Of a DNA stretch of 64,000 nt, positions 11,635 to 64,000 are shown piece by piece. Every line of letters begins with the position of its first letter. Positions within the stretch are counted from its first letter, which is position 1. Origin of the DNA: an uncultured Gammaproteobacteria bacterium (GTDB lineage Bacteria; Pseudomonadota; Gammaproteobacteria; CAWCPV01); NCBI GenBank assembly GCA_963797555.1, contig CAWCPV010000003.1:1-64000 (forward strand), given 5' to 3'. Position numbers and translations under genes: made by a program. The notes beneath the pieces are model-generated. The model had not been told where the DNA came from, ran no database searches, and saw nothing but the letters and a program-made list of their open reading frames with translations.

Positions 11635-11666
11635 CCGCAACTTGTGATCTCCATCAACTCAAACCC

Positions 11667-32598: not shown

Positions 32599-32600
32599 CA

Positions 32601-35439: not shown

Positions 35440-36854
35440 GGAATGCCCCTTTGCTCCCTGTCCAGGTGCCGCTCCCTTTCTGCTCGGAGGCGCTCCGCAG
35501 ATAGGACCCGGGCGATAACATGCTCACCGCCGCCGGCAGGCGACGGAAGGCTGGGCCACCGGTCGGGTGATTCGTCGGAGATCGGGGAATCGGCGGTCAC
35601 GGATTCGGGCAGGCTGGGCCAGGCGCCGGCGGAACGGTGCGCCGGCGCGAGCCAGAAGCCTGTCGCCGCGAGGGGCGGCCCGCCCGATATGGGCCCCTCT
35701 GGCACCGGGCAGAGCCTGATGCCGCCCGGACCGGCGGCAATGCTCGGGTATTCGGGCTGAGGCTGACCGGCAAAGGTCCGAGGCGGCGCCGTAGCGGCCT
35801 GCGGACCTTGGGTCGACCCCGCGGGCTGTTCTTCTACGCCTGCGGCCGACGATGTGCTCGGCGCTGCCAAAGGCTCTGTGCGCTCGGGAAGCAACGCATG
35901 CCTGAAGAAATCGAGATCCGGAGCAGGGGCCGTCGCTCGCCGGTTCGGCTCTCTGCGAGGCGGGGCTTGTGGCTCCGGCACTCTCGTCGCCGTGGCCGCG
36001 CCGGGGGACTGCGGCGGCACTGGAGCCGGTCCCGCTCGGCTCTGCGAGACCGGAGCCGTCGCGTTGGGCGACGACCGTCTGCGCGGGGGCTTCCACCAAG
36101 GCCGCTGCGCGCCGGTGGAGGCAGGCCGGCGGGTGACCGTGCCGGGCTGGCGCGCATCCGACGAAGCTACCGGGACGGCGTTTGCTCGGGGCTCGGACCC
36201 GCTCACCGGCGATTCCGGGTTCATTGCCGGCCCCGGCTGGGCGAGATTCGGGTTCGTACGTCGCCGATCGGGCGCAGGCACCTGCCGCTGCTCTTCGTCT
36301 GGCCGCTGGGGCAAACGCGGGGCGGACCATTCCGGCCTTACGCCAGCCTGAATCCCGGCGCGACGCACACCGGCGGCCTCCGCGGTCGCGGCCGCCCCGC
36401 GCATCCTGCCCGCAGCGCCCTCGGCCTCATCCCGGGGCACCTGCGGTCGGGAATGGTCTGTTCCGCAGTGGGCCGCATGCGAGTGCGGGGAGACCCCAAT
36501 GGGCGACGGAGGCGCGGAAACGGCCGCGGGGCCGCCCGTGTCGGTTGCGGGGAAAGTCTCCGCGCTCGGCTCCGGGGAAGGCAGCATGGCACCGGACTGG
36601 GCACCGCGCAGAAGCTGCGGTGCATGCCGGCGCACCAATCGCAGCCAGTGTTCCGGGGCACCCACGGTCGGCCGGACGGCCATCCCGTCCACCTGCCGGG
36701 ACTCACCCGGAGCCGAGGCGGTCGCCGGCATCTCGTCCGGCTCTCTTCGCTCTACCCCCGGCTGCGGTTCCCGAGCAGCCTCCAACCTGTCCGCCAAGGC
36801 GCCCAGCCACTGCGCCAAGCGGCGACGCAACGCCCGTTGCATCGTCCCGGTCAC
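35427..36854 (-). CDS. Pro/Ala-rich low-complexity CIS-associated protein
   Basis: Fills gap between tube and initiator with coupled ends; ends WPSLP..RHLDREQRG. Confidence 0.45.
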   Translation of the reverse strand: MTGTMQRALRRRLAQWLGALADRLEAAREPQPGVERREPDEMPATASAPGESRQVDGMAVRPTVGAPEHWLRLVRRHAPQLLRGAQSGAMLPSPEPSAETFPATDTGGPAAVSAPPSPIGVSPHSHAAHCGTDHSRPQVPRDEAEGAAGRMRGAAATAEAAGVRRAGIQAGVRPEWSAPRLPQRPDEEQRQVPAPDRRRTNPNLAQPGPAMNPESPVSGSEPRANAVPVASSDARQPGTVTRRPASTGAQRPWWKPPRRRSSPNATAPVSQSRAGPAPVPPQSPGAATATRVPEPQAPPRREPNRRATAPAPDLDFFRHALLPERTEPLAAPSTSSAAGVEEQPAGSTQGPQAATAPPRTFAGQPQPEYPSIAAGPGGIRLCPVPEGPISGGPPLAATGFWLAPAHRSAGAWPSLPESVTADSPISDESPDRWPSLPSPAGGGEHVIARVLSAERLRAERERHLDREQRGIPWSA

Positions 36855-36856
36855 AC

Positions 36857-37288
36857 TCAGTCGGCGCGCTTCAGTTCATCCGCGACCAGTGTCATGGTTT
36901 CGATCGCGGCGGCGGGGGCCATGGCTTCGAGCTTCGCCGCTCGCCAGTCCGTCAGCCAAGCGCGGAACAGGTTCCAGCGCGTGACCTCCTGCACCGCGTC
37001 GGTGCCCAGGAGGATGATGGAGACGTCCCTGCGCGTAACCTTTCCCTCCAGTCCTTCTTTGAACCAATCCCAGAGCGAGTTGGTCTTGCTGAGGCCATAA
37101 CGCAGCGTCACCTCGCCGACCTTGGCCCAACCGGGAAGCCTGCGCACCCAGGGCGCATCGCCGCCCGCCCGGTACTCGATGGCCTCCACCTTGACCCCCA
37201 GGCCGCTCACCTCGGTGAAATACGCGGCCGTCGCACCCTGGATGTCGAGTTTGAAGCTGTACGCGCGATAGATATCGTCGTCGGGCAT
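36857..37288 (-). CDS. Tail tube protein (T4 gp19-like)
   Basis: FTEVSGL, IEYRAGG, VTLRYG, LWDW, RRDVSI, RWNL..AW, AIET. Confidence 0.92.
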   Translation of the reverse strand: MPDDDIYRAYSFKLDIQGATAAYFTEVSGLGVKVEAIEYRAGGDAPWVRRLPGWAKVGEVTLRYGLSKTNSLWDWFKEGLEGKVTRRDVSIILLGTDAVQEVTRWNLFRAWLTDWRAAKLEAMAPAAAIETMTLVADELKRAD

Positions 37289-37319
37289 GGACTGGCTCCT
37301 CCGTCCGTGATCTGTTTAA

Positions 37320-37414
37320 CCGGTCATGGTGACTTTCGCCGCGTCGCATCATGAAAGCGCGCGCCATGACCGGCTCCCTCACCCCTAGCCCTCTCCCGCG
37401 AGCGGCGAGGGGGA
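37320..37414. repeat. Intergenic palindromes (REP-like) between sheath and tube
   Basis: ccggtcatgg...ccatgaccgg stem, then ccctcacccctagccctctccc..gaggggg. Confidence 0.45.
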
Positions 37415-37450
37415 ATTTGGTGCGCCTTCGGGGCACCTTCCCGTCAAGCA

Positions 37451-38674
37451 CTATGCGGCGGTCTGCACTTCCGAGCCGCCGGCCCACTGTCCGATGCGGA
37501 AGACGATGAATTCGGCGGGCTTCACCGGAGCGATGCCGATCTCGATCACCAGTCGCCCCGCATCCACCACCTCCGGCGGGTTGGTCTCGGCGTCGCATTT
37601 CACGAAAAATGCCTCGGCCGGGGTCGCGCCCAGCAGCGCGCCGTCGCGCCACAGCAAGGTCAGGAATGCGGTGACATCGCGGATCACCGACTGCCATAGC
37701 GTGAAATCGTTGGGCTCGAACACCGTCCAGCGAGTGCCGCCGGCGATGGATTCCTCGATCATGTTGAACGTGCGCCGCACGTTGATGTAGCGCCACTCGC
37801 TTGCCTCCTCCGCCACGGTGCGCGCGCCCCAGACGCGGATCCCTGCATCGGGGAAGAAACGGATGCAGTTCACCCCGGCGCTGTTCAATTCGCCCTGCTC
37901 TGCGCGCGTCACCCGGTACGTCAGCCCCACCGCCCCCCGCACCGTTTCGTTGGCCGGCGCCTTGTGCACGCCGCGGGTGGCATCCGTGCGCGCATAGATC
38001 CCGGCCATGTGGCCGGAAGGAGGCATCCTCTCCACGCCGGCCCCGTTCATGGGGTCTCGGCCCACGATCCAGGGAAAGTAGAAGGCGCCATAGCCGCCAT
38101 CGGAGTTGCGAGGCCGCATCCCGCGCCCCGCACCCGCCCCACGTGCCGCCTTCTTGCCCTCGCCCTCGTCGCCAGCGGGCGGTGGCCCCGCAGTGGCCAC
38201 TTGCTTGAGCAAGTCGACGTTGTCCACCTCGAGCGGCGCATCCATTATCGCGACCCGGTCTCCGAGTCGCTCGCAGTGGGTAAGCAGCGCGTCGTAGGAG
38301 ACGGCGTCGGTATAACCCGGCGCAGCGACAATCGCCACCTCGTCGATGGCGTCCAGGGCCCACAGCCCGGTGCGGGTGCGGGCATCTCCGCCGATAGGGT
38401 TGTTCTGCCCGACGTTCACCACGTAACAGCGCGCCCCGCCGTTCATGAAGAACCCGAACACCGCCCGCGCCAGGTCAGTCCCGGGGCTGTCGGCGGGTGC
38501 GAACTCCTTCAGGAACTGGGACCAACTGTTGCAGGCGAAAGGCTCGTTCGGATGGGCGTCCGGCTTCGGCGCGACGCCGACGAAAGCGGCGGTGCTGGTA
38601 CCGACCGGCGCGATCGGCCGGGTGCCCATGGAGACCTCCTCCACATAGACGCCGGGGGTGAGATAGTTCGGCAT
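37451..38674 (-). CDS. Contractile tail sheath protein
   Basis: YLTPGVYVEE, FFMNGG, PPSGHMAGIYARTD..RGVHKAPAN, WGART, WRYINVRR, VFEPN, KPAEF. Confidence 0.95.
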   Translation of the reverse strand: MPNYLTPGVYVEEVSMGTRPIAPVGTSTAAFVGVAPKPDAHPNEPFACNSWSQFLKEFAPADSPGTDLARAVFGFFMNGGARCYVVNVGQNNPIGGDARTRTGLWALDAIDEVAIVAAPGYTDAVSYDALLTHCERLGDRVAIMDAPLEVDNVDLLKQVATAGPPPAGDEGEGKKAARGAGAGRGMRPRNSDGGYGAFYFPWIVGRDPMNGAGVERMPPSGHMAGIYARTDATRGVHKAPANETVRGAVGLTYRVTRAEQGELNSAGVNCIRFFPDAGIRVWGARTVAEEASEWRYINVRRTFNMIEESIAGGTRWTVFEPNDFTLWQSVIRDVTAFLTLLWRDGALLGATPAEAFFVKCDAETNPPEVVDAGRLVIEIGIAPVKPAEFIVFRIGQWAGGSEVQTAA

Positions 38675-38675
38675 G

Positions 38676-39362
38676 TCAGACCTCCATTGCCTCGAAGTGA
38701 ATGACCAGCGGTTTCCGATCTCCGGCCACGTGTTCCACGGTGACCGTCTGCTCGTAGCCCTTGGCGCGTATCTGCAGCCGTTTCTGGGGCGGCTCGGCGG
38801 GAACCGCGGCGAAGCGGAAAACCCCCCTGGAGTCCGTGTGCGTCGTGAGCCGCGGCGACCCAAGCTCCACATGGGCGTCGCAGACCGGCAGATTCCCCGG
38901 TCCGAGCAGCACTCCCACGAGCGAAGTGAGCGGGGAGTGATGCACCTCGGCGGGCTTTCGCACCCGCCCGACTTTAGGCTCCGCTCGCGGCAGCCGCAAC
39001 GGCATGCGCAGCATGAACGCGGGGCGCGGAACGATGCCCAAAGCGCTCCAGAAAACCGCTGCGGGCGGATCGAGATCCACCTTGAATTCCGGGGATTCCA
39101 TCGCAGCGAACACCAGTTGCCCCAGCATTCGGTGGGCCTCTTGGGGAGACTCCGCCCGCGCCGTGACCAGATAGCGTAGACCGAGCTGCAGTGGGGGCGT
39201 GCGTGCCGCAGATACGCCCGGCGCGTCGGGGAGCAGATCCAGCAGGTAGAGGTAGATAGCCGGCGCCGCATCGGAGTCGTTGGGCGGCGTGAACCGGACG
39301 TCAACGTCCGGCACGATGGCGCCCGCCCAGTCTTTGAGGCGCTGGTCGAGATCCTCGATCAC
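38676..39362 (-). CDS. Pvc16/Afp16-like cap protein with C-terminal carboxypeptidase-regulatory-like domain
   Basis: IEDLDQRLKDW, IYLYLL, LRYLVTA, LGQL, FWSALG; first gene of the operon. Confidence 0.65.
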   Translation of the reverse strand: MIEDLDQRLKDWAGAIVPDVDVRFTPPNDSDAAPAIYLYLLDLLPDAPGVSAARTPPLQLGLRYLVTARAESPQEAHRMLGQLVFAAMESPEFKVDLDPPAAVFWSALGIVPRPAFMLRMPLRLPRAEPKVGRVRKPAEVHHSPLTSLVGVLLGPGNLPVCDAHVELGSPRLTTHTDSRGVFRFAAVPAEPPQKRLQIRAKGYEQTVTVEHVAGDRKPLVIHFEAMEV

Positions 39363-39904
39363 GGCGCTTCCTCCCTCTCTGACGACCGGGACAGACACTG
39401 CCCCGAAAGCTGTCAGCATCTGCCTAGGACGGCGTAACGCGACAAACTCTTCTGTGCTTCCGGCGCTCCTCCGATGACCGCCAGCGCGTTTATCTGCCTC
39501 GCGTTGGGAGCCTACGTTACTCTGGCGCTTTTCCGATTGCAACGGCTCGGTGACACCGACGCCCGGGAGATATGGCCGTCCGCAAAGAACGCTGCATCCC
39601 TCGCAGTTCCGTTGCCGGACCGACAGGCGCCCATGTTCGCCATCGGGGCCCCTGCACGGAGGTCGAGGCCGCTGTGACCGCGCGGGCGCCGCCCCAATCT
39701 CGAGAACGGACCGCAGCGGTCTTCTCGCGCATGTTGGGAATCGTGTTCTATCTTTAAGGGTGGCCGGCATTCCCCGATAGACGGGTAGGTCGGGTTAGGC
39801 CCCCGCAAGGGGCGAGCCCCGGGCGTCGGCGGTGCCAATCCGCGGCACCCTGACCCACATCGGGACCCTTTGCCACCTTTTCATCGACAGGGAGGAGAGA
39901 ACGA

Positions 39905-41824
39905 ATGGCCAGCATCGTCACAATCACGCCCACAGCCGAGAGTGTGGCGTGCACTCCTGGTGGCTCCGCAGAGCACAGCTTCAGCGTCACCAACACGACC
40001 GGCGCGCCCATCGGGGTCGGTGCGAGAATCGTCACCGCCGACCCCAGTCGGGAAGCGTGGTTCACTATCCAGGGAGCTGCCGAACGCCAGCTTGCCCCCA
40101 ACGAGACCGACCAGGTGACGGTCTCGATCAAGCCGCCAGCAGGCGCGGCACCAGGCACTTACAAAGTCAAGCTACAGGTTTTCTCGTTGGAGCGCGGGCG
40201 CGCGGGCGAGGACTTCACCGACGGGCCGACCGTCGCGGTCGTGGTCGGCCAGTTGCCTCCTCCGCCACCGCCGCCGCCCGATGGCCGGTCCCGCTGGTGG
40301 ATAATGGCGGTCGTGGGCGTGGTGGCACTCTTGGTGGTCGTAGGGCTGGTCACCTGGCTGCTCTGGCCCCCCCGTACGCCCGAGGTGCCGGACCTCGCGG
40401 GGCACACGTTGAAGGAGGCGCAGTCGGAGCTGGAGCACGTCGGACTCACGGTCGGCAAAACCAGCGCGAAGCTTACCGGAAAAACTGCGGAAGGCCAGGT
40501 GATCGACCAGACGCCCGAGCCCGGCAAGCCCTTGAAGAAGGGCGATACGGTGGACCTCGTGCTGGAGGCGGCGTCGGTCGAGGTGCCGGACGTGGTGGGC
40601 AAGAAGGTAGTGGAGGCCCAAGAGGCGCTGAAAAGTGCAGGTCTCGCGGTGGGCCCGATCGCGGAGCAGCGTACCGGCGGGGCCGCGGGCGGCACGGTGC
40701 TGGGGCAAGAGCCTTCGAAGGGGCAGCGCATTTCACCCCAGTCGGCGGTCGCACTGACGGTGGAGGCCGCATCGATCCCCGTGCCGCGCGTCATGGGGCA
40801 AACCCTGGCCGAGGCGACGCGGACCCTGAGAGATCGCGGCCTGGTGGTGGGCGAGGTAACACAGCGTCGGACAGGCGGAACCCCGAGCGTGGTGCTGAAC
40901 CAGAGCCCGGACGAGACTCGGTCCGTCCCGCCCGGCACGGCCGTCGCCCTCACGGTCGAGCAGCAGACCGTCGCCGTCCCCAAGGTCGAGAACCTCGACC
41001 TGCAGAACGCCATGCGCGCGCTGGTCAGCCAGGGCTTGAAGCTCGGCGCGGTCAGCGAGCGCCGCGGTGGCGCTGCCCCGGGGGTCGTGCTGAGCCAGAG
41101 CCCGACCGAGGGGCAGCAGGTGGCTCCGGGCACCGCAGTCAACCTCGTTATCGAGCAGCAGAAGGTCACCGTGCCCCAGTTGCAGGGCCTCGCCCTGCAG
41201 GCTGCAACCGGGCGGATTTCCGCCGAGGGCCTGAAGGTGGGGACGGTGACGAAGGCGCGGGAGGGCAAGGCAGCAGGTACGGTCATTCGACAGAGCCCCG
41301 GCGCGGGAGCCACGGTGATTCCCGGGACCGCGGTGGCACTGGTCATTCAGGACCAGCCTCTGCCCGCGTGTCGTTGGACCCGTTCCGTCTCCGAGGAGTC
41401 GCCCAGCTCGGAGAGCTGTCCGAGCGGTTTCGCGCTGAAAGGCATCAAGTGTAGCGGCAGGTACTGCGACAACAAGGCGCTTTATTGTTGCCCCTATCTC
41501 ACGGAGGGCGACAGGCGGAGCCGCCTCTCGTGGTCGGGCTGGATATCCGAGGAGAGGCCCAACAACACCGCCACCACGCGCTCCGGCTTCGTCGCCGGAC
41601 TGCAGTGCAAGGGTGCCTACTGTGACAACGTCAGGCTCCAGTACCTGAGCACCCCGGACCTCCGCAACACCGGACACTGCAGCAACCAGCCTTACGTCTC
41701 CGAAGAAGGATCGGGAACATCCATTTGCGGAGGGTACGGCACGTTCGTGGCCGGGATGAGCTGCAAAGGAAGCCACTGCGACAATGTATCGTTAGAATGT
41801 TGCGGGTCCGACCTGGGCCGGTAG
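39905..41824 (+). CDS. Ig-like + TM + 5 PASTA repeats + Cys-rich triple-repeat domain
   Basis: N-terminus paralogous to 27845-29008; five VP..G..A..L...GL..G repeats; three (V/I)SEE...CxGx(Y/H)CDN repeats. Confidence 0.85.
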   Translation: MASIVTITPTAESVACTPGGSAEHSFSVTNTTGAPIGVGARIVTADPSREAWFTIQGAAERQLAPNETDQVTVSIKPPAGAAPGTYKVKLQVFSLERGRAGEDFTDGPTVAVVVGQLPPPPPPPPDGRSRWWIMAVVGVVALLVVVGLVTWLLWPPRTPEVPDLAGHTLKEAQSELEHVGLTVGKTSAKLTGKTAEGQVIDQTPEPGKPLKKGDTVDLVLEAASVEVPDVVGKKVVEAQEALKSAGLAVGPIAEQRTGGAAGGTVLGQEPSKGQRISPQSAVALTVEAASIPVPRVMGQTLAEATRTLRDRGLVVGEVTQRRTGGTPSVVLNQSPDETRSVPPGTAVALTVEQQTVAVPKVENLDLQNAMRALVSQGLKLGAVSERRGGAAPGVVLSQSPTEGQQVAPGTAVNLVIEQQKVTVPQLQGLALQAATGRISAEGLKVGTVTKAREGKAAGTVIRQSPGAGATVIPGTAVALVIQDQPLPACRWTRSVSEESPSSESCPSGFALKGIKCSGRYCDNKALYCCPYLTEGDRRSRLSWSGWISEERPNNTATTRSGFVAGLQCKGAYCDNVRLQYLSTPDLRNTGHCSNQPYVSEEGSGTSICGGYGTFVAGMSCKGSHCDNVSLECCGSDLGR

Positions 41825-42212: not shown

Positions 42213-42234
42213 TAGGAGCGGCTTGAGCCGCGAA
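42213..42234 (+). repeat. GTAG-family REP
   Basis: TAGGAGCGGCTTGAGCCGCGAA; inverted near-identical copy at 54147-54170. Confidence 0.6.
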
Positions 42235-42358
42235 CGGTATTTCTTCACAAGACCTCATGCTCGGCAGGGGCACCACACGGCATAAAAATGACTGTTTTCA
42301 AGGCAACTCTGAGTTCCCTCCGCCAAGTGTGATTGGGGTGTCCGAGCAAGACATCCTG

Positions 42359-44347
42359 ATGGGCGGTGCCCGGCGCATCGAGATCGGCCGCGACGCCGTC
42401 GGCAACACCATCATCACCGGCGACGGCAACGTCGTCGGTGATCGAAGCGGTGCGGCGCCTTCCGGACCCGCAGGCCGCGCCACCCGGCTCGGCCCCAACC
42501 CTTACAAGGGGCTGGCCGCGTTCGACGAGGACGACGGCGAACGTTTCTTCGGGCGTGAGGCCCTGACCGGGAAGCTCTGGGAGGCGTTGCTTGCGCTGCA
42601 CGCGCCGCTGGACGCATCGCCTCCCTTGCGGCTGCTCGCCGTGGTCGGACCTTCGGGCTGCGGCAAATCCTCCGTGGTGCGCGCAGGGCTGCTGCCTGAG
42701 CTGGCGCGCCGGCCGCTCCCTGGCCTGGAGCGCTCGCGAGTCGCGGTGCTCACCCCCGGGGCGCACCCGCTGGAGGCGCTCGCCACCGTGCTGGCGCGTA
42801 TCGCGACGGACGATCCGGCCCCCATCGCCAAGGCGCGAGAATTCGCAGAAGAACTGAAGAGACCCCCGCACGACGGTCTGCGGCGCATCGGTGACGCCTT
42901 CCCGGGCAGCGCCAGCGCCCCCCTCGTCGTGCTGGTCGATCAGTTCGAGGAGGCTTATGCCCTCTGCCAGGACCCCACCGAGCGCGATGCCTTCATCGCC
43001 AATCTGATGGAGGCGGCGGCCGACCGCGGCGCCCGGGTCTCCGTGGTGCTGACGCTGCGCAGCGACTTCCTCGGTGCCACCGTGCGCCATCCGGCCCTCA
43101 ACGCGCCATCGCCGACCAGGGCATCCTGGTGCCGGCCATGGGCGAGGACGAGCTCCGCCGGGCCATTGCCGAGCCGGCGCGGCGGGCCGGCCATCCGCTG
43201 GAAGAGGCCACCGTCGATCGGCTGATCGGCGAGACCCTGGGCCGCGAGGGGGCGCTGCCGCTGCTCGAGTTCACCCTCACCCGCATTTGGGAGGGGCTTG
43301 CCGAGGGCAAGGCACCGGCCGAGACGCTGAGGGCGTTGGGCGGGGTGGGCGGTGCGCTCGCCGGGGAGGCCGAGCGGCTGTTCGAGCGGCTGACCGAATC
43401 CCAGCAGCAGATTGCGCGGCGTGCCTTCCTCGCCTTGGTGCGGCTCGGGGAGGGCACGCGGGACACGCGCCGGCGCGCGGTTCTCCCCGAGATGGTGGCT
43501 GCGGGCGAGCGTCCCGAGCAGGTGCAGGAGGTCCTGCGCGCCTTCGCGCGGGCGGGCGAGCGGCTGGTCACGCTCTCCGACGGAGGGCGGCGAGGTGTGG
43601 GCGGAGGTTACCCACGAGGCCCTCTTCGAGCACTGGACGCGGCTCCAGGGCTGGTTGACGACGGGTCGCGACGACCTGCGCTTTCACCGGCGCCTCGCTG
43701 AGGCGGCCGAGCACTGGGACCGGGCGGGACGCCCCGAGGGCCTGCTCTGGCGCCCGCCCGACCTGGATCTGCTGGATGCTTTCCAGCGCCGCGCTAGAGC
43801 GGACATGACAGCCCTGGAGGTGGACTTCCACCACACCTCGCTGGCTCGGGAACGGGCGCGTCGCCTCGCCAAGCGCGCGACGGTCTCGGGCCTGGTCCTG
43901 CTGCTGATTCTGATGGGGGGCCTCGGGGTGCTCTTGGAGCATCAGCGTAGGCTGGCCGACGAGCAGACGCACGAGGCCGAGACGGCTCGTCACCGCGCCG
44001 AGGAGCAAAGGGGCCTGGCGGAGCAGCAGAGGCTTCAGGCCGACATGGCTCGGCAACAAGCCGAGGAACAAAGAACTCTCGCAACCGCCAGGGAGCTGGC
44101 GGCCAGGGCGAATCTGGCGCTCGCAAGCTTTTCTGAATGGTGTAGTGTCCTGAGCACGCTTCTGTCCGTCGAGTCAGTCCGGCGACAGCCCACCTTCGAG
44201 GGCCAAATGGCTCTGATGGCTGGTCTACGGGTGCTGCGCTGCCCCATCGCCCGCCTTCCGCATGACGCTTGGGTCGAGGCCGTCGCCTTCAGCCCGGACG
44301 GCACGCGCCTCGCCACCGCAAGCAAGGACAGGACCGCGCGGCTCTAC
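42359..44347 (+). pseudogene. nSTAND1-type NTPase-TM-WD40 protein, truncated after first WD40 repeat
   Basis: PYKGLAAF..FFGRE, GPSGCGKSS, VDQFEE, TLRSDF, GALPLL, HEAL..W; single VAFSPDGTRLATASKDRTARL repeat; N-terminal IITGDGN motif. Confidence 0.8.
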
Positions 44348-44434
44348 GATAAATTCGTGGCGCGCCTCCGCGCGCTGCTCGCCGCTCAGGTAGTCATCCG
44401 CGCTGACAGGGGTCCAGTGGGCGTGCGAAGCCAT
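44348..44434 (-). pseudogene. N-terminal fragment of a Uma2-family endonuclease
   Basis: MASHAHWTPVSADDYLSGEQRAEARHEFI, then collides head-on with the WD40 fragment. Confidence 0.55.
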
Positions 44435-44600
44435 GGCTTCCCATCGCTGAGGTCGATGCCGCCCATCATAAGGACCTGAAGCGGGAACCACAAACGCGCC
44501 GCAAGCGCGGGTGCTGGGGAGTCCACGGCGCAGCCGTGTCGGCCGCCATCCCGCCGGGCAACGCTGGGCTCTGCCCACCCGCCGATCAGAACCCAGAAAC

Positions 44601-47441
44601 TCAGAAATCAGAATCCGCCAGGGACACCACCACCCGAAACCCCAGGGCGTAGCCGAAGCTGCCGGGATGATCCCTGCTCCGGTAGGCGCAGCGCGCGACC
44701 CTGCGGTCGCTGCTCCAGGAACCGCCGCGCACCACGCGCGGGCCCTCCGCCTGCGGGTCCTCTCGCCCGTCCTCGGCCGATACGGGTAATCCCGGTAGAG
44801 GCTCGCCGTCCACTCCCAGACGTTGCCGGAGAGGTCGTGGATGCCCTGCGCCGTGGCACCGGAGGGATAGACGCCCACCGGGGTCGTCCGCAGCACGCGC
44901 CCCTCGGCGGTATTGGCCCGCTCCGGACTCCAGCGGCGTCCCCACGGGTAGCGCCCTCCGCGGGGGTAGCGGGCGGCGCGCTCCCAGGCCGCCTCGCTGG
45001 GGAGGGCAACGCCCTGCCCCGGCGCGAGGGGCGGCTGCGCGGCGTCCCCCGCCGCCCGCCACCGGTCCTGGAGCCACAGGCAGTACGCGCGCGCCTCGAA
45101 CCAGGTGACGCCCACCACCGGCTGGCAGGGGTGGTTGAAGGGCGCGTCGTCCCAGTAGGTCGGCCGGTCCGCGGGGCGACTCCCATAGGACTTTTTCATC
45201 TCTCGGGCGAAGTCCTCCTCGTCGAGAGCCAGAGCGTCCTCCCAACGGGCCACGATCTGATGACTCCAGCCCTGCTGCCCAGCCGGCGCGGGTTCTCCTT
45301 CAGCCAGCGCCATAGGTCGATCAGGTCCTCGACCGCCTGGCTCTTCAGCTCGCCGCGCCGCCAGGCCCGAGCCTGGGCGTCGGCCACCAGCGCTCGTCCT
45401 GGTAGCCCCCCGCCTGCCAGAAGCAGGCGTACTCGGCATTGGTGACCGGGTAGCGGCCGATCCAGAAGGCCGGAAGCGGGACCTGGCAAGGGGGGAACTC
45501 GTCGCCAGCCGGCACCTTCGAAAGCCGAAGCCGGAGCAGCTCCCAGAGGCTCGAGCCCACCCGAAAGGCGCCCGCCGGCAGGGGCACGAGGGGCCGCAGC
45601 AGCACCCGCTGCCCGTCCACCGCGAGGGCCTGGAAACGCGGGTCGCCCAGGCTGCCCAGGGCTTCGCCTGCGGCGATGCGGTGGCGCAGGTGGACCTTGC
45701 GGTTCCCCATCGCCGCCAGCAGGTCGTTCTGGACGCCCTGGACCTGGCCCGGGTCCGCCGCCGCGCCGACCTCCGACAAGCAGCGGGCGGCGAGCACCGG
45801 GTTCGCCCGGCGCACCGCCTCGACGAAGGCGCCAGCATCTTCCGCGAGGCCCGCGGCCAGCACCGTCGGCTCCTCCCACCCCGTGGTCGGCGGCCCGGGC
45901 AGCGGCTCGTCCGGCCCCAGCGGGCCCGGATCGGGCATCTCCCGGACAAGCCTGCGCTGGCGCCAGCGGGGGGCGAGGTCCTCGCCTTTGGCGAAGCGCG
46001 AGAGCAGGGCGCGCGCCGAGAAGTACTCCTGGAGCTGGTGGTGGTAGAAACGAAGCTGCTCCTCGGCGCGCGCGTCCCGCTCGCCCTCGCGCCGCGGCTC
46101 CACCTCGGTGTCCAGCAGGGTGGCCGCGAGCCCCAGGCGCTCGACGACCGCCGGGGCAACGTCCACCGGGCCGTCGGCGGTCTCCACCGTCCGGGGGATG
46201 CGCTGCCGCGCCTCTTTCCGCGGCAGCCGCACACCCGCCCCGAAGGGCTGCAGGGTCTCGGCCAGACCGGAGAGCGCCATGGCGAGGGCTTCTTCTCCGG
46301 GCCAGTCGGGGTGGTTGCGGTCGTGCTCCCGGGCGAGCAGCAACCTGACGAAGCCCTTGAACAGGGCGGCGCGGCTCCGCGGCCAGTCCCCGCCTTCCTT
46401 GACCAGGGCCGCCAGCATGGCGAGATACCAGGGATTGCGCACGAGGTCGAGCAGCGGGCTTCCCTCCAGCCTGCCCCAGGCCTCCCCGGCGAGCTCCGAG
46501 GTCAGGTAGCGGGCGAGAAAGGTCTGCACCCGAGGGTCGTCCAGGCGCTCGATCTCTACCTGAGGCAGCCCGAGGGGCTCGCCGTAGTCCCGGCTGCGGC
46601 AGGTGACCACCACCTGGTTGCCCGGCCGCTCGGCGAGCTTTGCGATGAAGCGGCGCCACTCCCCCACCCGCACGCGATAGTCCCGCTCGTCTTCGAAGGG
46701 CATCTCGTTCAGGGCGTCGCAGAGCAGCAGGACACCGCCGCCGTCCACCCGCGCCTGCAGGTCGGCGGTCCCGACCCACTTCCACTGCGCCTCCAGCAGC
46801 TCGTGGGGGGAGCGGTAGCCGCGGTAGTCGGCGAGCGGCAGGAACACCGGGAACGGCCCCTGCCCTTCCTCCAGCCGGCGGCGCGCCGCCTCCAGCGCCA
46901 GACGGTACAGGGTGGTGGTCTTGCCGGCCCCCGGCTCGCCCAGAAGCGCCACGGCGTGGTGGCGGCCGAGCGCCTCGGCCACGTTCTCCAGGCGCACGCG
47001 CTTCACCTGGCGCTGGGGCCCTTCCCCGAGCACCTGCAGCTCCGTGTACTCGGGGGCCAGATCCTCGCTGGTCAGCATCCCGGCCAGCGGCACGAACTGG
47101 GTCGCCCAGCGCCCGTAGCGGGGGCTCACCAGCATCGCGGCCAGGTAGGCCCGTTCGTCCCCCTGTCGGGCGGCGGCCGGCCAGAGGTCGGACGCAGCCT
47201 CCCTGGAAAGGGTCACCTGGGGAGCGCCGGGTGCGCTGACCATCAGGAGCCCCCGCGCGGGGTCCGCCTGGAGGGTCGCCTGGCGATCGGCGAGCATCTC
47301 CCGCAGGACGGAGAGGACTTCGTCGAGCTGCTCCGGGCTGAAGGGGCCAAGACGGAGGTTCAGGTCGCGGCCGATGACCGTGCCGGCCTGCACCGGCCCC
47401 GCGTAGATGGCCCCGCCTCCCGTGTCGATTCAATCCGGCAT
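44601..47441 (-). CDS. DGR target 1: NACHT NTPase + FGE-sulfatase (C-type-lectin fold) domain; frameshifted, in-frame TGA at codon 4
   Basis: GEPGAGKTT, LLCDALNEM, VVTCR, FYHHQLQEY; [39 protein letters not shown]; N-terminal IDTGGGAIYAGPV. Confidence 0.88.
44622..44738 (-). repeat. DGR variable repeat VR1
   Basis: 117-nt match to TR with 14 substitutions, all opposite TR adenines. Confidence 0.95.
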
Positions 47442-47467: not shown

Positions 47468-47663
47468 CCCGGCGCCGTGCCGCTCGGGCGGCAGGACGCC
47501 GGGCGCTGCGCTATTCGGCCGGCCGCGGGGCTGCCGCGGGCGCGACCCGGACCGGGCTGGGCTGGCTCTTCTCCCTGGCACCGTCCCGCATCGCTGGATG
47601 ACGGGATCTGCCGGCCGTGTCAAGCGGGCTGCGCCCGCCATGCCTCCCAGGGAAAACGGCTAT
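47468..47663 (-). ncRNA. Structured spacer downstream of TR (probable part of the DGR RNA)
   Basis: Hairpins at 47468-47503 and 47584-47606 immediately 3' of TR. Confidence 0.55.
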
Positions 47664-47780
47664 GGACACCACCACCCGAAACCCCAGGTTGTTGTTGAAG
47701 TTGTCGGGATGATTCCTGTTCCGGTAGGCGCAGCGCGCGTTCCTGCGGTTGTTGTTCCAGGAACCGCCGCGCACCACGCG
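47664..47780 (-). ncRNA. DGR template repeat (TR)
   Basis: Reads [39 protein letters not shown]; 9 AAC + 1 AAT codons, 25 adenines; directly after avd. Confidence 0.95.
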
Positions 47781-47807
47781 CGGTGGCAGCCCGGCCCGAC
47801 ATCCAGT

Positions 47808-57531: not shown

Positions 57532-58160
57532 GGCCGGCGCGTCCACGTCGTGCAGGGTCTGGGCGGGCTCGGCAAGACCGCGTTGTGCGTCGAGGCCCTC
57601 AAAGTCTACCGCCGGCAGGGCCGCGAGGTCCTCCACCTCTGGTGCGCCGAGGTGGAAGAGTCCGCGGATGCGGTGGAGGGGCTGGTCCGCCAGCTCGAGC
57701 AGGCCGCCGCGCCGCTGGCCGGCGAGGTGTGGGACGCCCTGCTCGCCGGCCTCGACCAGGTGGCCGCCGCCCATCCCGACCTGCAGCGTCCGGCCGGGCG
57801 CCTCGGGGTGCTCCTCGCCGCCCTCCTGGCCCGCGAGGGGCAGGGGCCGCTGGTGCTCTACCTGGACAACCTCGAGTCCCTGCTGACTGCGCCCGAGGCG
57901 GAGGACGCCTTCGGCGACTGGCGCGACCCCGAGTGCGCCGCCCTGTGGCGGGTGCTGCGAGAACGCGCCGCGGCCTCCGCGGGACGCCTCGCGCTGCTCG
58001 CTTCCTGCCGTTACCGCCACCGAGACTTCGCCGACGTGCTGCTGCCTTTGCGGCGGCTGCCGCCCGACGCCCTGTGGCGGCTCATGGGGTGGTTTCCCGG
58101 GCTGCGCCGCCTCTCCCGCTGGAGCCTCAAGCGGCTGGTGGAGGGGCTCGCGGGCCACCC
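57532..58160 (+). other. Inverted internal segment of the CHAT-STAND-TPR gene
   Basis: Plus strand reads RRVHVVQGLGGLGKT..LVLYLDNLESL..LAGHP, the missing middle of the minus-strand gene. Confidence 0.85.
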
Positions 58161-59973
58161 CTGGCGCAGGTCCCGGCGCAAGGCGTGCAGCTCCCGGCGG
58201 CGTCCCACGAAGCCCTGGCGCAGGATGCGGGTGCGCGACCCCGGCGCCACCTCCTCCTCGAGGCGCTCGGGGGGAGCCTCCACGGTCTCGGTGTACCGCT
58301 TGGGGATAGGGAGCCCGAGGGGATAGTCGGGGCCGCGGTGGTAGAAGACGAGCTGGGCCCAGGCAAAGGGGGTTAGGCCACCGGAGGCTCCGGAGGCGTC
58401 GCGCAACACCTGGCGGGCGTCGGGCACGAGCGGCCGGGCCATCGCCTGCCGGGCGGCGCGCACCGCGTCGCGGGTACGCCGGCCGCGGGCGATCTCGCCG
58501 TAAAAGGCCGCCTCCGCCCAGGTGGACTGGGCGTCGTAAACCGGGCCGAAGTAGGCCACCACCTGAGCCACGCCGTCGCGGTGGAGCAGCGCGGCGGCGG
58601 AGGCGATGCCGGCCTGCTCGCCGGCGCCCAGGCTGGGGGCATCGCCCCCGTGACAGCAGGCGAGGTAGAAGAAACGCGGGAACCGCGCCGGTGCGGCGCG
58701 GCGCATATCCTTCAGCAACCGGTCGACCGGCACGCCGTCCTGGCCGCCGAAGGCGTCCTCGAACACCAGCTCGCCCGGCCCGCCGTGGCCGGAGAAGTGC
58801 ACGCCGAGCGGCGGCGGGTTGGCACGCAGGCCCTCGACCAGGTCGTCCAGCTCCCCCATCTCGTTGACCTGCACCCCGACATGATCGTGCAGCGCCCGGG
58901 TGATGTAGTAGCTCTCGGCCTCGTAGTCGAGCCCGCTGCCCTCGGGCGCCGAAACGTTGATGAGCAGGCGCACCGGCTCCGCGGGCGGGGCGAGGACGGG
59001 TGTCCCTGGGGCGGGGACCGAGCGCGCCACGTCCAGGCGTCCTTCCTGCACGGCGTAACGACCTTCGAGCCGCAGCAGTTCCCAGGGGAGGGCCAGGATG
59101 AAGTCGTCCGCGCTCTCGATTACCAGCAGTGGCGGCGGGCCGTCCCCGTGGGCGGCCGCGGTGAGCGTCTCGGCCTCTTCGGGGGCGAGCACTCGCCCCA
59201 GCGCCTCGCCCAGCGCGAGAGCATGGGCCTGGACCGCCTGGCGCTCGCCGTCGTCCTCGATGGCGCGCCGGCTGAGCCGCCAGAAGCCCTCCAGGGCGGG
59301 GCCGAAGCCCGGTGTCGCGGCCCAGGGCACCGGTACCGTGCGGGAGGCGCCTCCGGCCTCCGACCGGCTCGCCGCGATCTCCCAAGCGGAGCGCGCTTCG
59401 TCGGCATAGCCGATGGAAAGGGTCAGGGTGGGCAAGGGCACCGCGCCCGGCACGTCCTGGGCCTTGAGGACCCCACCCTCCAGTTGGGCAATCAGCTCCG
59501 CCGTCAGCTCGGTGATGCCCGGAAACACGTAGACCCGGTTGTCGTCCCCGGTGATGATGACGTTGCCGTGCGCATCGTGCCCGATGTGCACCTGCCTCTC
59601 CCCGTTCATGCGCCCCCTCCTGCTCCCTGCTGCGCGCTTCGCGCGGCCGGAATTAGGGTCGGCTTTCCCGCCGACCACGGCACCCAGGTTGGAAGTTTAA
59701 CCTGCCCCGGGCGGACGGTAGGCTTCCCGTCTTGGGTGGCGTTACCGAATCCAGCGGCCCTCCCGGAGGGGCGGCTAGGCTCCCGCCGTCGTCCACTCGC
59801 GAGTGGCCAGCAGACCGTCCTCGTGCAATACCAAGTTACCCCTGCGGTACCGGACCGCCGTCGGCCTTCCAGCCTCCTCCGGGGCTGCTGACCATGCCCG
59901 GCTTCCAAGAATGAACAGCGCGTGTCACAGACCCAAGAGGCGGAACCGATGTGGTCCTTCCAAGCCCGACACG

Positions 59974-61181
59974 TCATGGCCACCAGCGGCCCACATCCCC
60001 AACGGCGTGCGCGACCTCTACCAGTGCCTCTGTGCCGCCCATGCCGGCAATAACCGGTGCGCTTGGAACCAAGACTTGCAGCATTTCATAACGCGATCCG
60101 AGCATGGCAGCCGCCACCAGGCCACTCCAGCGGAAGTGCAGCATTTGGCGCGGCAGCTCCACAAACCCGGCAAAGCAGGACAGGGCCTTGGCTCGCAAAT
60201 TCTGATCCCCGATGCCCCGCGCCACCCCTAAGGCTTGCCCGAGCAGCGGCTCGGGCAGGTGCGGCAACAGATCCGCCAGGACCCCGGCCCGCTCGGACTC
60301 ACTCCCGATGCGCCGCATCGCCTCCAGGGTTTCGGCCAGAACCGAGGCGCGCAGCGACTCTGACAGGTACGGGCGCCAGTCGGCCGAGGGCCTCGGCACG
60401 CTCATACCCATCCCCGATAATGCCGCGCGCGCTCGCTGAAGAGCGGCTCCAGGCGCGCAACCTCGCGCGGCACGTCGACGTTGAGGGCGACCGGGACCGG
60501 GCGCTGGGTGGCGACGACGTAGACGCCCTGGGGCAGGCCGCGCGGCAGCGCGAGTACGTTCTCCCCGCTTTCGGCGGGCAGCTCGTCGAGCGCGTCCACC
60601 GCCAGGACGATGGGCTCGTCCGCGCGCTTGGCGTCGCGTTTCGCCGCAGCCTGCTGGAGCGGCCGGCTCAGGTAATTCGGCTGGCCGGCGTGCTGCGGAA
60701 GCGCCGCCACCTCGGACTCGAGCAGCCACGCCCGCAGGAGCTGGGCGGCGAGGCTGCGGCGGGCGGTGGCCGGGTCGTGGCCGCCGGGGAGCTCCGGGAA
60801 GTGGTGCACGTAGGCGCGCTCGCGCACCAGGTGCGCCAGGTAGGCGGTCTTTCCCAGCCCGGCGGGCGCCTCGATGACGAAGTAGCCGCGGTCATGGGTG
60901 CGCAGAAAGGCATCCAGGCGCTCCGTGAGCCAGCCCCGCCCGGCGAAGCGCTCCAGGTGCACGCGCTCGAACACCTGGGCCGGCGAAAGATAAGCGTCGA
61001 GCAAGGGCTGGTCCGGGCCGACGAACACCTGCTCCGCGCTGATCAGCAAACTGTTGACGACGTTGCCGCCGACCTGGATGCGCCGGTCGTGGATGATGCT
61101 GTGGTCGCCCTGGACGATGTTGCCGAGGTTGTCCCCGTGCACGTCGGCCCGTCGGTCAGGGCTTTGCGGTTTGCGGAACAT
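59974..61181 (-). pseudogene. STAND/NACHT-like NTPase with N-terminal amyloid-like motif; apparent large internal deletion near 60410
   Basis: FAGRGWL, APAGLGKT, LAVDALDE, LPQGVYVVATQRP joined abruptly to helical-repeat C-terminus ending VGRWWP. Confidence 0.7.
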
Positions 61182-61191
61182 CGGCTCGGCG

Positions 61192-62539
61192 CTATTCCTT
61201 GGCCTGGTCCCGGCGCCCGTCGCGGGACACGCGCACGCCGTCGCCGCTGATCAGCGTGCTGCCAGTGACGTCGCCCCCGACCTGGATGCGACGGTCGTGG
61301 ATGATGCTGTGATCGTCCTGGACGTTGTCGCCCTCCACGTGGACGTGGCGGCTCTGTCGGGGCTCGCGACGGCGCCGGAGCCAACTCCTTCCGAGCCAGC
61401 CCAGACCGCCCAGCAGGAGGGCGGTGCCGATACCCGAGAACAGTGCCTCCCAGTGGGCGCCGACCCAGCGGCGCAGCGATGCCCATGCCCCCTGCCCGTC
61501 AGGAGTGGATGCGCTCGGCCCGGTCGGGTTCTCTCGCACTGCGATCGCGGTGGACGAGGCTCCCGCGCCGATGGTCTGGACTGGCGTACCGATCAATACC
61601 TCCCGCTGCGGACCGCTTGTCGCGCAGCGCTTGCCCGCTTCCGCCGCCGATGTCTCCTTCAGCTTGAACACGAAATCTCCGCGGGACAGCTCGTAATCCT
61701 TGATGGTGCCGAACTGCGGCGTCTGAGCTTCATGCTCAGACACGGTATTGCGGAGGTAGAGCCCGAGTCTCCATACCGGTGACGTAACCGTCGCAGTCCA
61801 GGTCCCCCTTTCCGAAGCGCAGCGCGTCCACGAAGGCCGGCGCGAAGACGCTGCGCGCCGGCACGGTCTCATTGGCGCTGCCGGCGGTGATGAATTCCCG
61901 CACCGGCTCGGCCGTGATACGCGCGATGTGCGGGGGCTGCTTCGGCAGCTCACGCGCCTGGAAGACCATCCCGGAGAAACAGCTATCGAACAGGAACAGG
62001 TCGTGCTTGGCCTCGATCTCCCGCGCCCAGAGCAGCACCTGCTCCATACTCACGGCCTTTGCCTTGAAGCCGTTGGGGTCCGCGTCGGGGCTGGGCGCGT
62101 CCACGGGGACGATATAGCCCATCTCGATCCCGTCCTCGCGCTTCAGCGTGTAGCCATGACCGGCGAAGAAGAACACCAGCCGGTTGTCGTACACCCGCCC
62201 GTAGCGGTCGATGAAGTCCACGAAGGCCGCGCGGAGCTGCTGCGCGCTGGCGTCGAGGAGCTTGACGACCTGGAAGCCCTGCCCCTTCAGGGTCGCTTCG
62301 ACCTGGTCCAGCTCACCCGGCACGCTCTCCAGGTCCGGCCAGCCCCCCCTGTAGTCGCTCTCGCCGACGAGCAGCGCGTGACTCTCCCGGTAGAGGCCGA
62401 CCTGTTGCCCGCTCGGGTCCGTCACCACGACCACGCCGCGCTGGAGGTCATCGGCGCCCGGCAGGGCACCGAACCAGAGGACGGCGAGCACGGCGAGGAT
62501 GCTCCCTCCCTTGCGAGCGCGTGCTCTCCGGTTATTCAT
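61192..62539 (-). CDS. Signal peptide-caspase(C14)-TM-amyloid-like-motif protein (one frameshift near 61770)
   Basis: HALLVG, FFAGHG, FDSCFSG, REFITAG, DGYVTG, RGDFVF; TM ALFSGIGTALLLGGLGWLG then RSWLRRRR; tail DHSIIHDRRIQVGGDVTGSTLISGDG. Confidence 0.82.
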
Positions 62540-63009
62540 GACTCCCCCCGGCATCGGCCGGCTGCCAATGCGCGAGCCTGGACCGCTGTTCCAGCCAGAT
62601 ATCGGCCTCGCTCGCCCAATCGAAGGCGCGGGTCGGTCGGGGCGATGCGGGAACGACGGCCGCCCGACCACCAGTCCTGGCTTGCGTCGCGGACGCAGAG
62701 GTGACGATGCTTAGCCTCTTCCGCTGAGGTGCTCGCGAAGGCTCGCGAACCTGTCCACCCGCCCAAGACCCGATCCTCGTCCTGCGGAGCGGAGTGGTCA
62801 AGACTGACAGCGCTCATAAGCGACCCGCCGGGGGGTCCGTTTGGCGCGCGCGGTTTATCGGTGCGACCGAGCAGCCTCGGACCGACCACGGACCGTCGGG
62901 CTTCGGGGCTCCGTGCACCCTCAAGGAGTGGGTGTTAGACTCGCCGGTGATGGGAACCCAGTTCCAAAGGCGCTCGGCCGAAAGGGCGACACTCAAGGGG
63001 AGGAAGGGC

Positions 63010-63387
63010 GTGCAAGAATTCCTGAACTCGAAGTCGATGCTCACTCCCGGAGCCGCTGGCGCGACCACGACGCTCATCACGGGCACGCTGGTCAGCCAGT
63101 TCGGGCTGCCCGGCAACTGGACCGGGCTCGCGACCAGTTTCCTCATCGGGCTCATCGTCTGGGCGGACAAGAGCCTGCCCGTTGTCCAGCGCCTCTTCGT
63201 TTATGTGGTCAGCTCCATGGTCATCTTCTCGGTCGCGATCGGGCTCAACGAGGCGGGCCGGGCGGCGACCCAGCCGAAGCAGCCGCCGGGGTATCAGACG
63301 AGGGAGGTCCCGAGGGAAGCCCCTCCCCAGAAGGAGGCGAAGCCGTTCTTCCAGAGCTGGTTCCAGCGCCAAGGTGAGACTCGCTAG
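63010..63387 (+). CDS. Small membrane protein
   Basis: GTG after GGAGGAAGG; EFLNSKSMLTPG start, 2-3 TM helices. Confidence 0.6.
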   Translation: MQEFLNSKSMLTPGAAGATTTLITGTLVSQFGLPGNWTGLATSFLIGLIVWADKSLPVVQRLFVYVVSSMVIFSVAIGLNEAGRAATQPKQPPGYQTREVPREAPPQKEAKPFFQSWFQRQGETR

Positions 63388-63419
63388 GAAAGTTCTGCCG
63401 AGGGTTGCCGGGTGACGGC

Positions 63420-64000
63420 ATGACCAAGCTCCCCTGTTGGGCGGCCCGCACGTCGGCATCCCTGCTATTCATGCTGCTGCTCTCGGTTGGCGGGTTCGCG
63501 TGCCACGGCCCCCCGTCCGGGGACGAGGACATCTCACTCGCGAACTGCCCCCTCGGACCGGCGGTGGAAACCGCTGGGCACCAACGTCTCGCCCTCATCG
63601 TCGGCGTGGGGGATTATCGGAGCGAGCGGGTACCGGACCTCGCCGGGCCGCCCAACGACGCGCGGCGCATCTACGAGCTGCTCACCGGAAAGGGTGGCTA
63701 CGGCTTTCCGAAGCAGAACGTCTGCTTGCTGCTCGACGCCGAGGCGACCACCCGGCGTTTCCGGAAGGTGTTCGAGAAGGCGCTGGTGGACCGGGCGCAA
63801 CCAGACGACGTGGCGGTGTTCTACTTCGCGGGGCATGGCTCGCAGACACGCGACAGAAACGGGGACGAGCCGGACGAGTGGGACGAGACCTTCCTGTTCC
63901 ACGACGCGCGCACTCCGGGCGTCCATGACCTGGTGGACGACGAGCTGAACCGGATGCTCGCGCACCTGCACCACAAGACCCATCACATCGCGGTCATCCT
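63420..64000 (+). CDS. Exported caspase-like peptidase C14, runs off window end (frameshift after the leader)
   Basis: Leader ending GGFAC; RLALIVGVGDY, NDARRI, FYFAGHGSQ..DEPDEWDET, LVDDEL. Confidence 0.85.
   Translation, partial: MTKLPCWAARTSASLLFMLLLSVGGFACHGPPSGDEDISLANCPLGPAVETAGHQRLALIVGVGDYRSERVPDLAGPPNDARRIYELLTGKGGYGFPKQNVCLLLDAEATTRRFRKVFEKALVDRAQPDDVAVFYFAGHGSQTRDRNGDEPDEWDETFLFHDARTPGVHDLVDDELNRMLAHLHHKTHHIAVI

Follow-up and report, generated by a model that had tools for sequence, protein, structure and literature searches.

Matched motifs on an exported caspase and an NLR-like NTPase of an uncultured gammaproteobacterium: a probable decayed two-gene module of BASS-like type

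In the Apaf-1/caspase-9 system, an oligomer of a STAND protein (signal transduction ATPase with numerous domains) gathers caspases through a matching N-terminal CARD adaptor, and all of the components are cytosolic. In known matched-motif signalling, the effectors are soluble or membrane-inserting and lie in the same compartment as the NOD-like receptor (NLR). The bacterial version, in which adjacent genes carry matched motifs at the effector C-terminus and the NLR N-terminus (bacterial amyloid signalling sequences, BASS), is described in the available text of Dyrka 2020 (bioRxiv 10.1101/2020.01.06.895854), where effectors other than the Bell type are listed as exceptions, including a CHAT caspase-like protease. 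The sections available of Kaur 2020 (PMC7159879) describe systems built on effector-associated domains (EADs), which are enriched in multicellular bacteria, in which the effector is often a caspase or trypsin peptidase and for which homotypic coupling is proposed; they also link FGS domains with diversification by diversity-generating retroelements (DGRs) in related conflict-system islands. Excerpts of two further reports concern bacterial Apaf-1-like STAND proteins with a fused caspase (PMC13581612) and the antiphage Abi pair Bab/Agp of E. coli (bioRxiv 10.1101/2024.11.07.622273). Here we analyze a 64,000-nucleotide stretch of DNA from an uncultured gammaproteobacterium, referred to as the window (contig CAWCPV010000003.1, positions 1 to 64,000; G000:C3:1-64000, 65% G+C), and within it a gene pair on the minus strand, an exported caspase gene (61192-62539) followed by the remnant of an NLR-like NTPase (59974-61181). 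We propose, at a probability of roughly 0.6, that the pair represents a two-gene NLR/effector module, now decayed, of the BASS-like, matched-motif, amyloid-signalling type.

The likeness to BASS modules lies in the two adjacent and collinear genes, separated by 10 bp, and in a motif of ~25-36 residues at the effector C-terminus and the NLR N-terminus; the window motif is without Pro and Lys, and related loci have small Bell-like helical partners. The differences are that the window effector is an exported Peptidase_C14 caspase and not a Bell protein, that a membrane helix stands between the catalytic domain and the motif (‘transmembrane’ is not a word in the available text of Dyrka 2020), that the window NTPase reaches only the AAA_16 cut-off, and that both window genes are broken. 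As in the partly available account of EAD systems (EAD1-11), one copy is N-terminal on the NTPase and the other is on the adjacent effector, and FGE-sulfatase and DGR elements share the island, in the window too. EADs differ, however, in being folded domains ~90 residues long that have Pfam models, whereas the window motif is short and predicted to be unstructured, and none of the EAD models matches the pair's four open reading frames (ORFs) at E<=0.01. The fungal HET-S/NWD2 system also has an NLR head homologous to an effector tail and, in the part of the literature available, a proposed templating from the oligomerised receptor; it differs in having a pore-forming HeLo effector in the same compartment, in showing no sequence similarity and in belonging to another domain of life. 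The parallel to Apaf-1/caspase-9 is a STAND oligomer that gathers caspase protomers through a matching N-terminal adaptor, but that adaptor is a CARD and the system is cytosolic, whereas the window caspase domain would sit across the membrane. The class of architecture is thus already published, and what is new here is a membrane-anchored exported caspase with a cytoplasmic motif tail together with a concerted private motif: no description of an exported caspase with a transmembrane helix and motif tail was found in the available portions of the literature searched, and a literature text search with the motif strings matched no paper.

The central evidence is a direct repeat in the DNA. Positions 61060-61124 and 61268-61332 are identical at 58 of 65 bases, as the sequence-only reading of this stretch had counted, and the ungapped repeat widens to 61037-61124 and 61245-61332 with 73 of 88 bases identical (83%). 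At any one placement, chance would yield 58/65 with a binomial probability of 2e-25, which becomes 8e-16 when corrected for 64000^2 placements, and the runner-up direct repeats within 59000-64000 are 20-32 nt long at 73-83% identity. Since the copies differ at 15 of their 88 bases, the repeat is no identical assembly duplicate; that reading had itself named an assembly duplication absent from reads as its undoing. On the minus strand, the tail copy (…GDNVQDDHSIIHDRRIQVGGDVTGSTLISG…, 61245..61332) aligns with positions 4-27 of a hidden Markov model (HMM) of the NTPase family head, described below, at E 0.13 genome-wide, and the head copy (…GNIVQGDHSIIHDRRIQVGGNVVNSLLIS…, 61037..61124) with positions 4-20. 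The caspase stop TAG (61192-61194) and the next ATG (61179-61181) leave an intergenic gap of 10 nt on the same strand, and minus-strand reading confirmed both this gap and the tail and head peptides reported earlier, together with the GLGKT of the P-loop (residues 108-112). Among the 32 aligned codons of the repeat 14 differ, 4 of them synonymously and 10 non-synonymously, and in the 14-codon core DHSIIHDRRIQVGG, which encodes the same peptide in head and tail, 3 differences are synonymous and none is non-synonymous. Because all three core differences are synonymous, and with the caution that such small numbers call for, this suggests that the core peptide was conserved after the copying event.

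The same likeness is seen between the proteins. Tail and head share 24 of 36 aligned residues (0.67), compared to 0.31-0.44 in the other 12 pairs introduced below, and the highest identity is 0.33 for the window tail with the heads of other loci and 0.23 for the window head with the tails of other loci. Alignment with MAFFT places the insertion …DNVQDDHSIIH… in both window partners relative to the family. Given this high likeness and common insertion, head and tail were probably copied one from the other post-divergence, after the lineage had gained the …Q-x-D-H-S-I-I-H… insertion, with the 14-residue core kept identical since. The sequence-only reading had envisaged pair-specific interaction codes, visible as greater likeness within loci than between them. 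For this pair that expectation is borne out (0.67 versus <=0.33), but across the 12 other pairs the within-locus identity is 0.379 versus 0.353 between loci (permutation p 0.02, for pairs that are kin and non-independent), so that a general code is only weakly supported. In a complex prediction for two heads and one tail, run with their own alignments, the score was 0.15 and the mark 0.32, a value that speaks neither for binding nor against it.

The caspase gene is spread over two frames of the minus strand. Its first part (61736..62539) has an MNNRR start, a signal-like segment (maximum 19-residue Kyte-Doolittle hydropathy, KD19, of 1.75 at residues 13-31, after MNNRRARARK) and a Peptidase_C14 domain (PF00656, E 2.4e-12, 47.5 bits where the cut-off is 21.4), with both the catalytic His (FFFAGHGY) and Cys (FDSCFSG) sites in the translation and a third-position G+C content (GC3) of 0.82-0.96 in frame. 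It ends at a premature stop (61736-61738) after ...DGYVTGME+TRALPPQYRV. Homologues read DGYVTGxELGxYL uninterrupted, and MAFFT alignment with three paralogues from the same genome (C14:6731-6805, C3:20106-20180, and C14:10497-10571), all of which show a single 1-nt gap at this place, locates one extra base (GGAG-A-CTCGG) at 61774..61778. This base, near 61776 and not within a homopolymer, is why the caspase is split, and it interrupts the Peptidase_C14 domain, the frame shifting after DGYVTGME and ahead of the last conserved elements. The next frame (61192..61776, stop at 61192-61194, GC3 0.72-0.90) holds the end of the fold (LGLYLRNTV...QTPQFG...GDFVF), a linker, a probable transmembrane helix, and the tail, and tblastn alignments with the paralogues run contiguously over the junction. 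A programmed frameshift at GGAGACTCGG was considered and rejected by eye, as there is no slippery run and the three paralogues are without the extra base. The caspase-transmembrane protein that the sequence-only reading treated as one product therefore has its catalytic domain in one frame and its transmembrane and motif part in another; that reading overlooked that both genes of this pair, and its sister pair, are disrupted.

The probable helix, ALFSGIGTALLLGGLGWLG (61390..61446), has a KD19 of 1.52, the maximum of its ORF, and is followed by RSWLRRRR. The 65-residue tail with the motif (61195..61389) is included in the gene caller's 183-aa product P0271. According to the positive-inside rule, positively charged residues mark the cytoplasmic side of a membrane segment. 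Because there are positive residues at the N-terminus and RRRR after the helix, the simplest topology would have the caspase domain outside and the motif inside. The earlier reading had reached this topology from the RRRR, and it is plausible in view of the signal-like N-terminus, although the helix is borderline in hydropathy. All genes of the caspase-NLR finding are on the minus strand in an ORF and GC3 scan of the window. Since GC3 is maximal in minus-strand frames, the plus-strand ORFs 60057-61250, 61054-61782, and 61928-62704 were ruled out as genes.

The second gene retains a STAND NTPase remnant of 259 residues (60402..61181, minus strand) consisting of the head and a STAND-type P-loop core, with Walker A (GLGKT) at 60846-60860 and Walker B (VDALDEL). 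AAA_16 is the sole Pfam family to reach its cut-off in the NTPase (36.1 bits versus 32.6), as NACHT (17.9) and nSTAND1 (16.3) stay below theirs and the NB-ARC cut-off is not reached either. A full HMMER search with the 259 residues gave 2173 proteins at E<=1e-3 and 1285 at E<=1e-10, and most of the best 150 of the 2173 are 1200-1800 residues long; the remnant ends where homologues run on for another 500-1500 residues. What follows, ~60 nt beyond the NTPase stop and in frame -2 as opposed to frame -3, is the last repeat or repeats and the C-terminal cap (59974..60372, minus strand, ending in …DVGRWWP), which is equivalent to the final ~125-130 residues of a homologue of full length and corresponds by tblastn to residues 635-758 of 758 in P0123, 1704-1823 of 1823 in P0220, and 1663-1793 of 1793 in P0184. 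The equivalents retained of P0123 (758 aa) are residues 1-236 and 635-758, in two frames. With only the N-terminal core and the extreme C-terminus matched, ~400-1300 internal residues of the NLR are missing, and the remnant does not have the tripartite NLR architecture with a helical/winged-helix module and a C-terminal repeat sensor. The designation as an NLR in the sequence-only reading thus stands for the head motif and the P-loop core but not for the sensor part, which is lost from what is now a 259-residue protein. AlphaFold2 (AF2), with a 35-row alignment, models residues 57-256 at a predicted local distance difference test score (pLDDT) above 90 and residues 1-54 at ~40, the latter without secondary structure. 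As assembled, the module is dead, with a +1 frameshift in the caspase and an NLR that is without everything between the NTPase core and the last repeat.

The second half of the motif corresponds to a head that is conserved at the N-terminus of a large family of STAND NTPases. Its consensus is approximately G-[DE]-R-S-[IV]-A-[VI]-G-G-D-[AV]-I-x-S-[IL]-[LI]-[VI]-T-G-D-[HN]-N-x-x-F-[VI]-G, and in family members it directly precedes the conserved YERLxDAY…GR.WL…GLGKT. For most of the best 150 matches, the alignment begins at query residue ~32, a few residues from the N-terminus of the match. The head of the window NLR, HDRRIQVGGNVVNSLLIS, is a divergent form of the family head, and the caspase tail, HDRRIQVGGDVTGSTLISGDGVRV, is nearer to the canonical head than the window NLR head is. 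The motif has the look of a pseudo-repeat, with partial units (…GDN…, …QGDHS…) ahead of a full unit, a trait shared with the fungal HET-S/NWD2 type of pair, and is charged, D/R-rich and poor in Q/N. Family members also occur with fused N-terminal domains (DUF4062, EAD1, and Trypsin), about half of which keep the head motif as judged by eye; because it is absent from about half of these fused members, the head is a module outside the NTPase fold. The head HMM, built from the 78 of 149 matches caught by an anchor pattern, finds matches in its own genome (94,831 ORFs) within the window only, namely in the head of an NLR at 42227-43222 (plus strand), the N-terminus of a CHAT protease (58014-59696, minus strand), the tail of the window's other caspase (caspase1), the head of this NLR, and, weakly, the tail of this caspase (E 0.13). 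The sequence-only reading had taken the pair as independent of the sister pair and as bearing a different motif. This overstates the case, as both window caspase tails carry one family-level unit, G-D/H-R-x-[IV]-x-V-G-G-x-V-x-G-S-T-x-x-x-G-D-G-x-R-V, and the DTGGG motif of the sister pair is an additional upstream unit, found beside the family unit also in L066, a related locus, and in P0184. Searches for the window's own variant found it once only, and these searches are weak, as they are blind below ~38 bits: head residues 1-60 had no match among proteins of 455-2000 aa, and the 65-residue tail matched only the window's own product among proteins of 115-2000 aa. Metagenome contigs yielded just two loci, at 50% identity. 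When the tail alignment was used to search 400 genomes across the phylum along with the source genome, clear matches came from the latter alone; the best foreign match (genome G194, E 1.2e-4) has no head-HMM match, and the others, counted at E<=1 in 201 of 401 genomes, do not rise above noise.

Matched copies recur across related loci. We gathered 80 loci with NTPase relatives from species-representative genomes, which include Chloroflexota, Actinomycetota, Acidobacteriota, Planctomycetota, Cyanobacteriota, one Noviherbaspirillum, and one Methanotrichaceae metagenome-assembled genome (MAG). In 12 of the 80, all from Actinomycetota, Planctomycetota and Chloroflexota (L006, L007, L009, L010, L012-L015, L017, L018, L022, and L026), a neighbouring ORF, in most cases the one immediately upstream, contains a further match to the head HMM; the count refers to the family-level motif, and Dyrka 2020 set five non-redundant gene pairs as the minimum for recurrence. 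In 11 of these 12 loci no more than 18 residues separate the second copy from the end of the ORF; in L010 the copy precedes a TCAD2 domain and the ORF runs on for 160 residues. A thirteenth locus, L066, has an internal copy in a TIR_2-TCAD2 protein. Of ten partners searched against Pfam, the one in L007, from a Planctomycetaceae MAG, is a Peptidase_C14 protein, as is the one in L010, from an Anaerolineales MAG, which also has TCAD2; the partner in L066 has TIR_2. No credible family was obtained for the seven small partners, which have a hydrophobic N-terminal helix followed by a helical domain and are judged Bell-like by eye. BLAST of each head against its own locus gave further matched pairs, of other motif types, in L023, L041, L043, L056, L059, and L066, the matched unit of L066 being of the DTGGG type. 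In L023 (a Thermoflexales MAG), the head …GNIVQLVKAEG.S.I…QQVF of the ORF at 6974-11263 matches the C-termini of two small downstream ORFs (11486-12055 and 12093-12506), and in L041 the tail of the upstream ORF (6558-6959) and the head of the next (6845-10876) are identical at 15 of 18 residues. Arg/Pro-rich BLAST matches were discarded as noise, and L034 is doubtful. Because matched copies recur in this way, a modular system of effector tails and NLR heads is supported in general, in agreement with the modular, repeatedly assembled architecture that the sequence-only reading had put forward.

A signal-like N-terminus is present in 101 of the 111 caspase homologues whose sequence begins with M, and source annotations name PEGA, FGE-sulfatase, or DUF1566 as the C-terminal additions of the homologues. 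In the window itself there are two exported caspases in which a hydrophobic helix, a cluster of positive residues, and a tail with the motif come after the caspase domain. The caspases of L007 and L010 are 68% identical to each other and 28-32% identical to the window caspase over 80-98 residues, and they belong to another Peptidase_C14 clade and lack a hydrophobic segment. A fragment of an exported-caspase paralogue lies at 19983-20330 (minus strand) of the window, and contig C14 of the same genome has two genes (5790-7540 and 9500-11210) for a signal peptide, a caspase and an FGE-sulfatase domain, one intact and the second frame-changed near 11031.

Other systems surround the pair in the window. 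In the sister (DTGGG) pair, a 181-nt duplication (99% identity) has copied the 5' end of its NLR gene, NLR1 (52306-52486, start MEEKD…), into caspase1 at 53328-53508, where it replaces the end of the caspase domain and destroys the gene, and the caspase1 tail has a frame change between the DTGGG unit and the GDRGVAVGG… unit. A CHAT protease (58011-59678, minus strand; PF12770, E 2.8e-10) has the family motif MNGERQVHIGHDAHGNVIITGDDNRV as its N-terminus, and the sequence after it (55801-58000, minus strand) has a P-loop and TPRs in other frames; together they look like a frame-broken, all-in-one CHAT-NLR. The STAND-like ATPase at 42227-43222 (plus strand) has the best head-motif match of the genome (GGARRIEIGRDAVGNTIITGDGNVV, E 2.3e-6), and the ORF after it (43394-44476, plus strand) is in a different frame. 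A DGR is present, with 130-nt repeats at 44612-44741, 47654-47783, and 49478-49607 and a reverse transcriptase ORF at 48297-49680 (minus strand); with the 47654 copy as template, the 44612 copy has 18 mismatches, 16 of them at adenines of the template. In the NLR with the DTGGG head, the variable copy lies at the 3' end of the C-terminal, FGE-sulfatase-type domain, and thus the sensor domain of that NLR appears to be diversified by the DGR. Long ORFs on both strands at 27000-41000 (among them 36860-37315, 29558-32707, and 33083-34762) have, from their N-termini, what we take to be the look of tail-tube and baseplate proteins of a contractile injection system.

We now put forward a hypothetical mechanism for the intact ancestor of the module. 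Ligand-triggered oligomerisation of the NLR would cluster its heads (step 1), and these would recruit or template the matching caspase tails by beta-sheet co-assembly, which may or may not be amyloid (step 2). Clustering of the tails would gather the caspase domains on the periplasmic side of the membrane (step 3), and the caspases, activated by proximity, would cleave targets in the envelope or periplasm (step 4). A bolder extension, which we regard as rather doubtful when taken as a whole, is that intact modules carry out inside-out NLR signalling by amyloid-like templating onto the tail of a periplasmic caspase, leading to envelope proteolysis, and that motif insertions such as …QxDHSIIH… insulate the pair from the other systems of the island.

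The alternative that survives best departs from this mechanism in the physical nature of step 2 alone. The motif could be a non-amyloid homotypic adaptor, such as a beta-hairpin or beta-augmentation tag, that works one-to-one by an EAD-like logic. EADs obey the same rule of one copy at the NTPase N-terminus and one on the neighbouring effector (in the available part of PMC7159879), EAD1 is fused directly upstream of the motif in P0159, the motif is charged and Q/N-poor, and many relatives retain it despite a fused effector domain. A stretch of ~25-36 residues is, however, not long enough to form a globular domain, AF2 gives it no structure, there is no Pfam EAD match at E<=0.01 in the proteins of the window, and the Bell-like partners in the actinobacterial loci are the published context of BASS, so that we consider an adaptor a real but minority possibility.

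We consider it unlikely that the module is intact in the organism and that the extra base of the caspase and the deletion in the NLR are metagenome assembly errors arising from strain consensus or mis-joins. The source MAG (5.35 Mb in 20 contigs) is 84.6% complete and the lesions are without read cover: the candidate public runs share little with the source (0.11, 0.07, 0.07, and 0.00), and exact short contigs from three of the runs (X1-X3) cover only 61324-61647, none spanning the frameshift, the NLR deletion, or both copies of the repeat. Frame breaks are dense in the island, where caspase1, the CHAT/NB-ARC gene, the NLR at 42-44 kb, and one caspase paralogue on contig C14 are disrupted, and the NTPase and the transmembrane region are both present, in short contigs only, in a marsh-metagenome relative of ~91% identity. 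The 40 GTDB relatives examined, none closer than the same class, have no copy of the NTPase, and gyrA look-alikes in the Atlas come for the most part from Pseudomonadota, a weak indication of the taxon. Against assembly error, secA and gyrA of the MAG are each single open frames (each across its whole model) and it has 66 high-GC3 ORFs of >=1000 aa, which indicates that the assembly is otherwise sound and not generally error-ridden; neither rpoB nor rpoC was found in it. The extra base is outside any homopolymer, and the NLR lesion, with a loss of >=400 residues, a passage from unique NTPase sequence into the last repeat, and a change of frame, is not a simple repeat collapse. Real decay is a quite probable origin of the caspase and NLR lesions, with assembly error accounting for the remainder.

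Improbable, finally, is that the motif was never an interaction code and is a by-product of ectopic recombination that copied a 5' piece of the NLR gene onto the 3' end of the caspase gene, for which there is a precedent nearby in the 181-nt NLR1 copy within caspase1, as well as the lack of the motif on any other exported caspase among the best 119 homologues and the private variant found nowhere else in those weak searches, but the copy is in frame, old (83% identity), placed after the helix and positive cluster and closed by its own stop, its 14-codon core has changed only synonymously, it keeps the canonical ending GST-x-x-x-GDG-x-RV that the head of this NLR has lost and so is no plain copy of the present head, caspase1 shares the layout of signal peptide, caspase, helix and tail with motif units of its own, and tails with the motif recur beside these NTPases in other phyla.

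Several points weigh against the decayed matched-motif module that we favor. The motif is in none of the 119 non-self caspase homologues among the best 120 of 437 (best HMM E 1.4), no exported caspase with a transmembrane helix is found among the other matched pairs, and both window examples of the exported caspase-helix-motif arrangement are damaged; with no second intact example and both window copies damaged, the architecture could be a non-functional local accident. The second caspase paralogue on contig C14 is frame-changed as well, by either decay or local assembly error. The KD19 of the helix (1.52) falls slightly below the classical threshold of 1.6 for a 19-residue stretch. The D/R-rich and Q/N-poor motif departs from the composition described for BASS in the text available, and the BASS-type assignment of the pair was made by architecture and not by a match to the BASS1-10 profiles. 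Lastly, co-assembly, amyloid formation, and caspase activation in the ancestor are each steps that we infer.

With both genes damaged and no intact counterpart found, the window locus itself is of limited value, and L007 and L010 are intact natural pairs that carry the motif. Within a single STAND family spread over at least five phyla, the conserved head motif recurs on Bell-like, caspase, and TIR partners. If the module worked as proposed, NLR/effector assemblies could relay a signal across a membrane, and bacterial caspases would act in the envelope under the control of an NLR.

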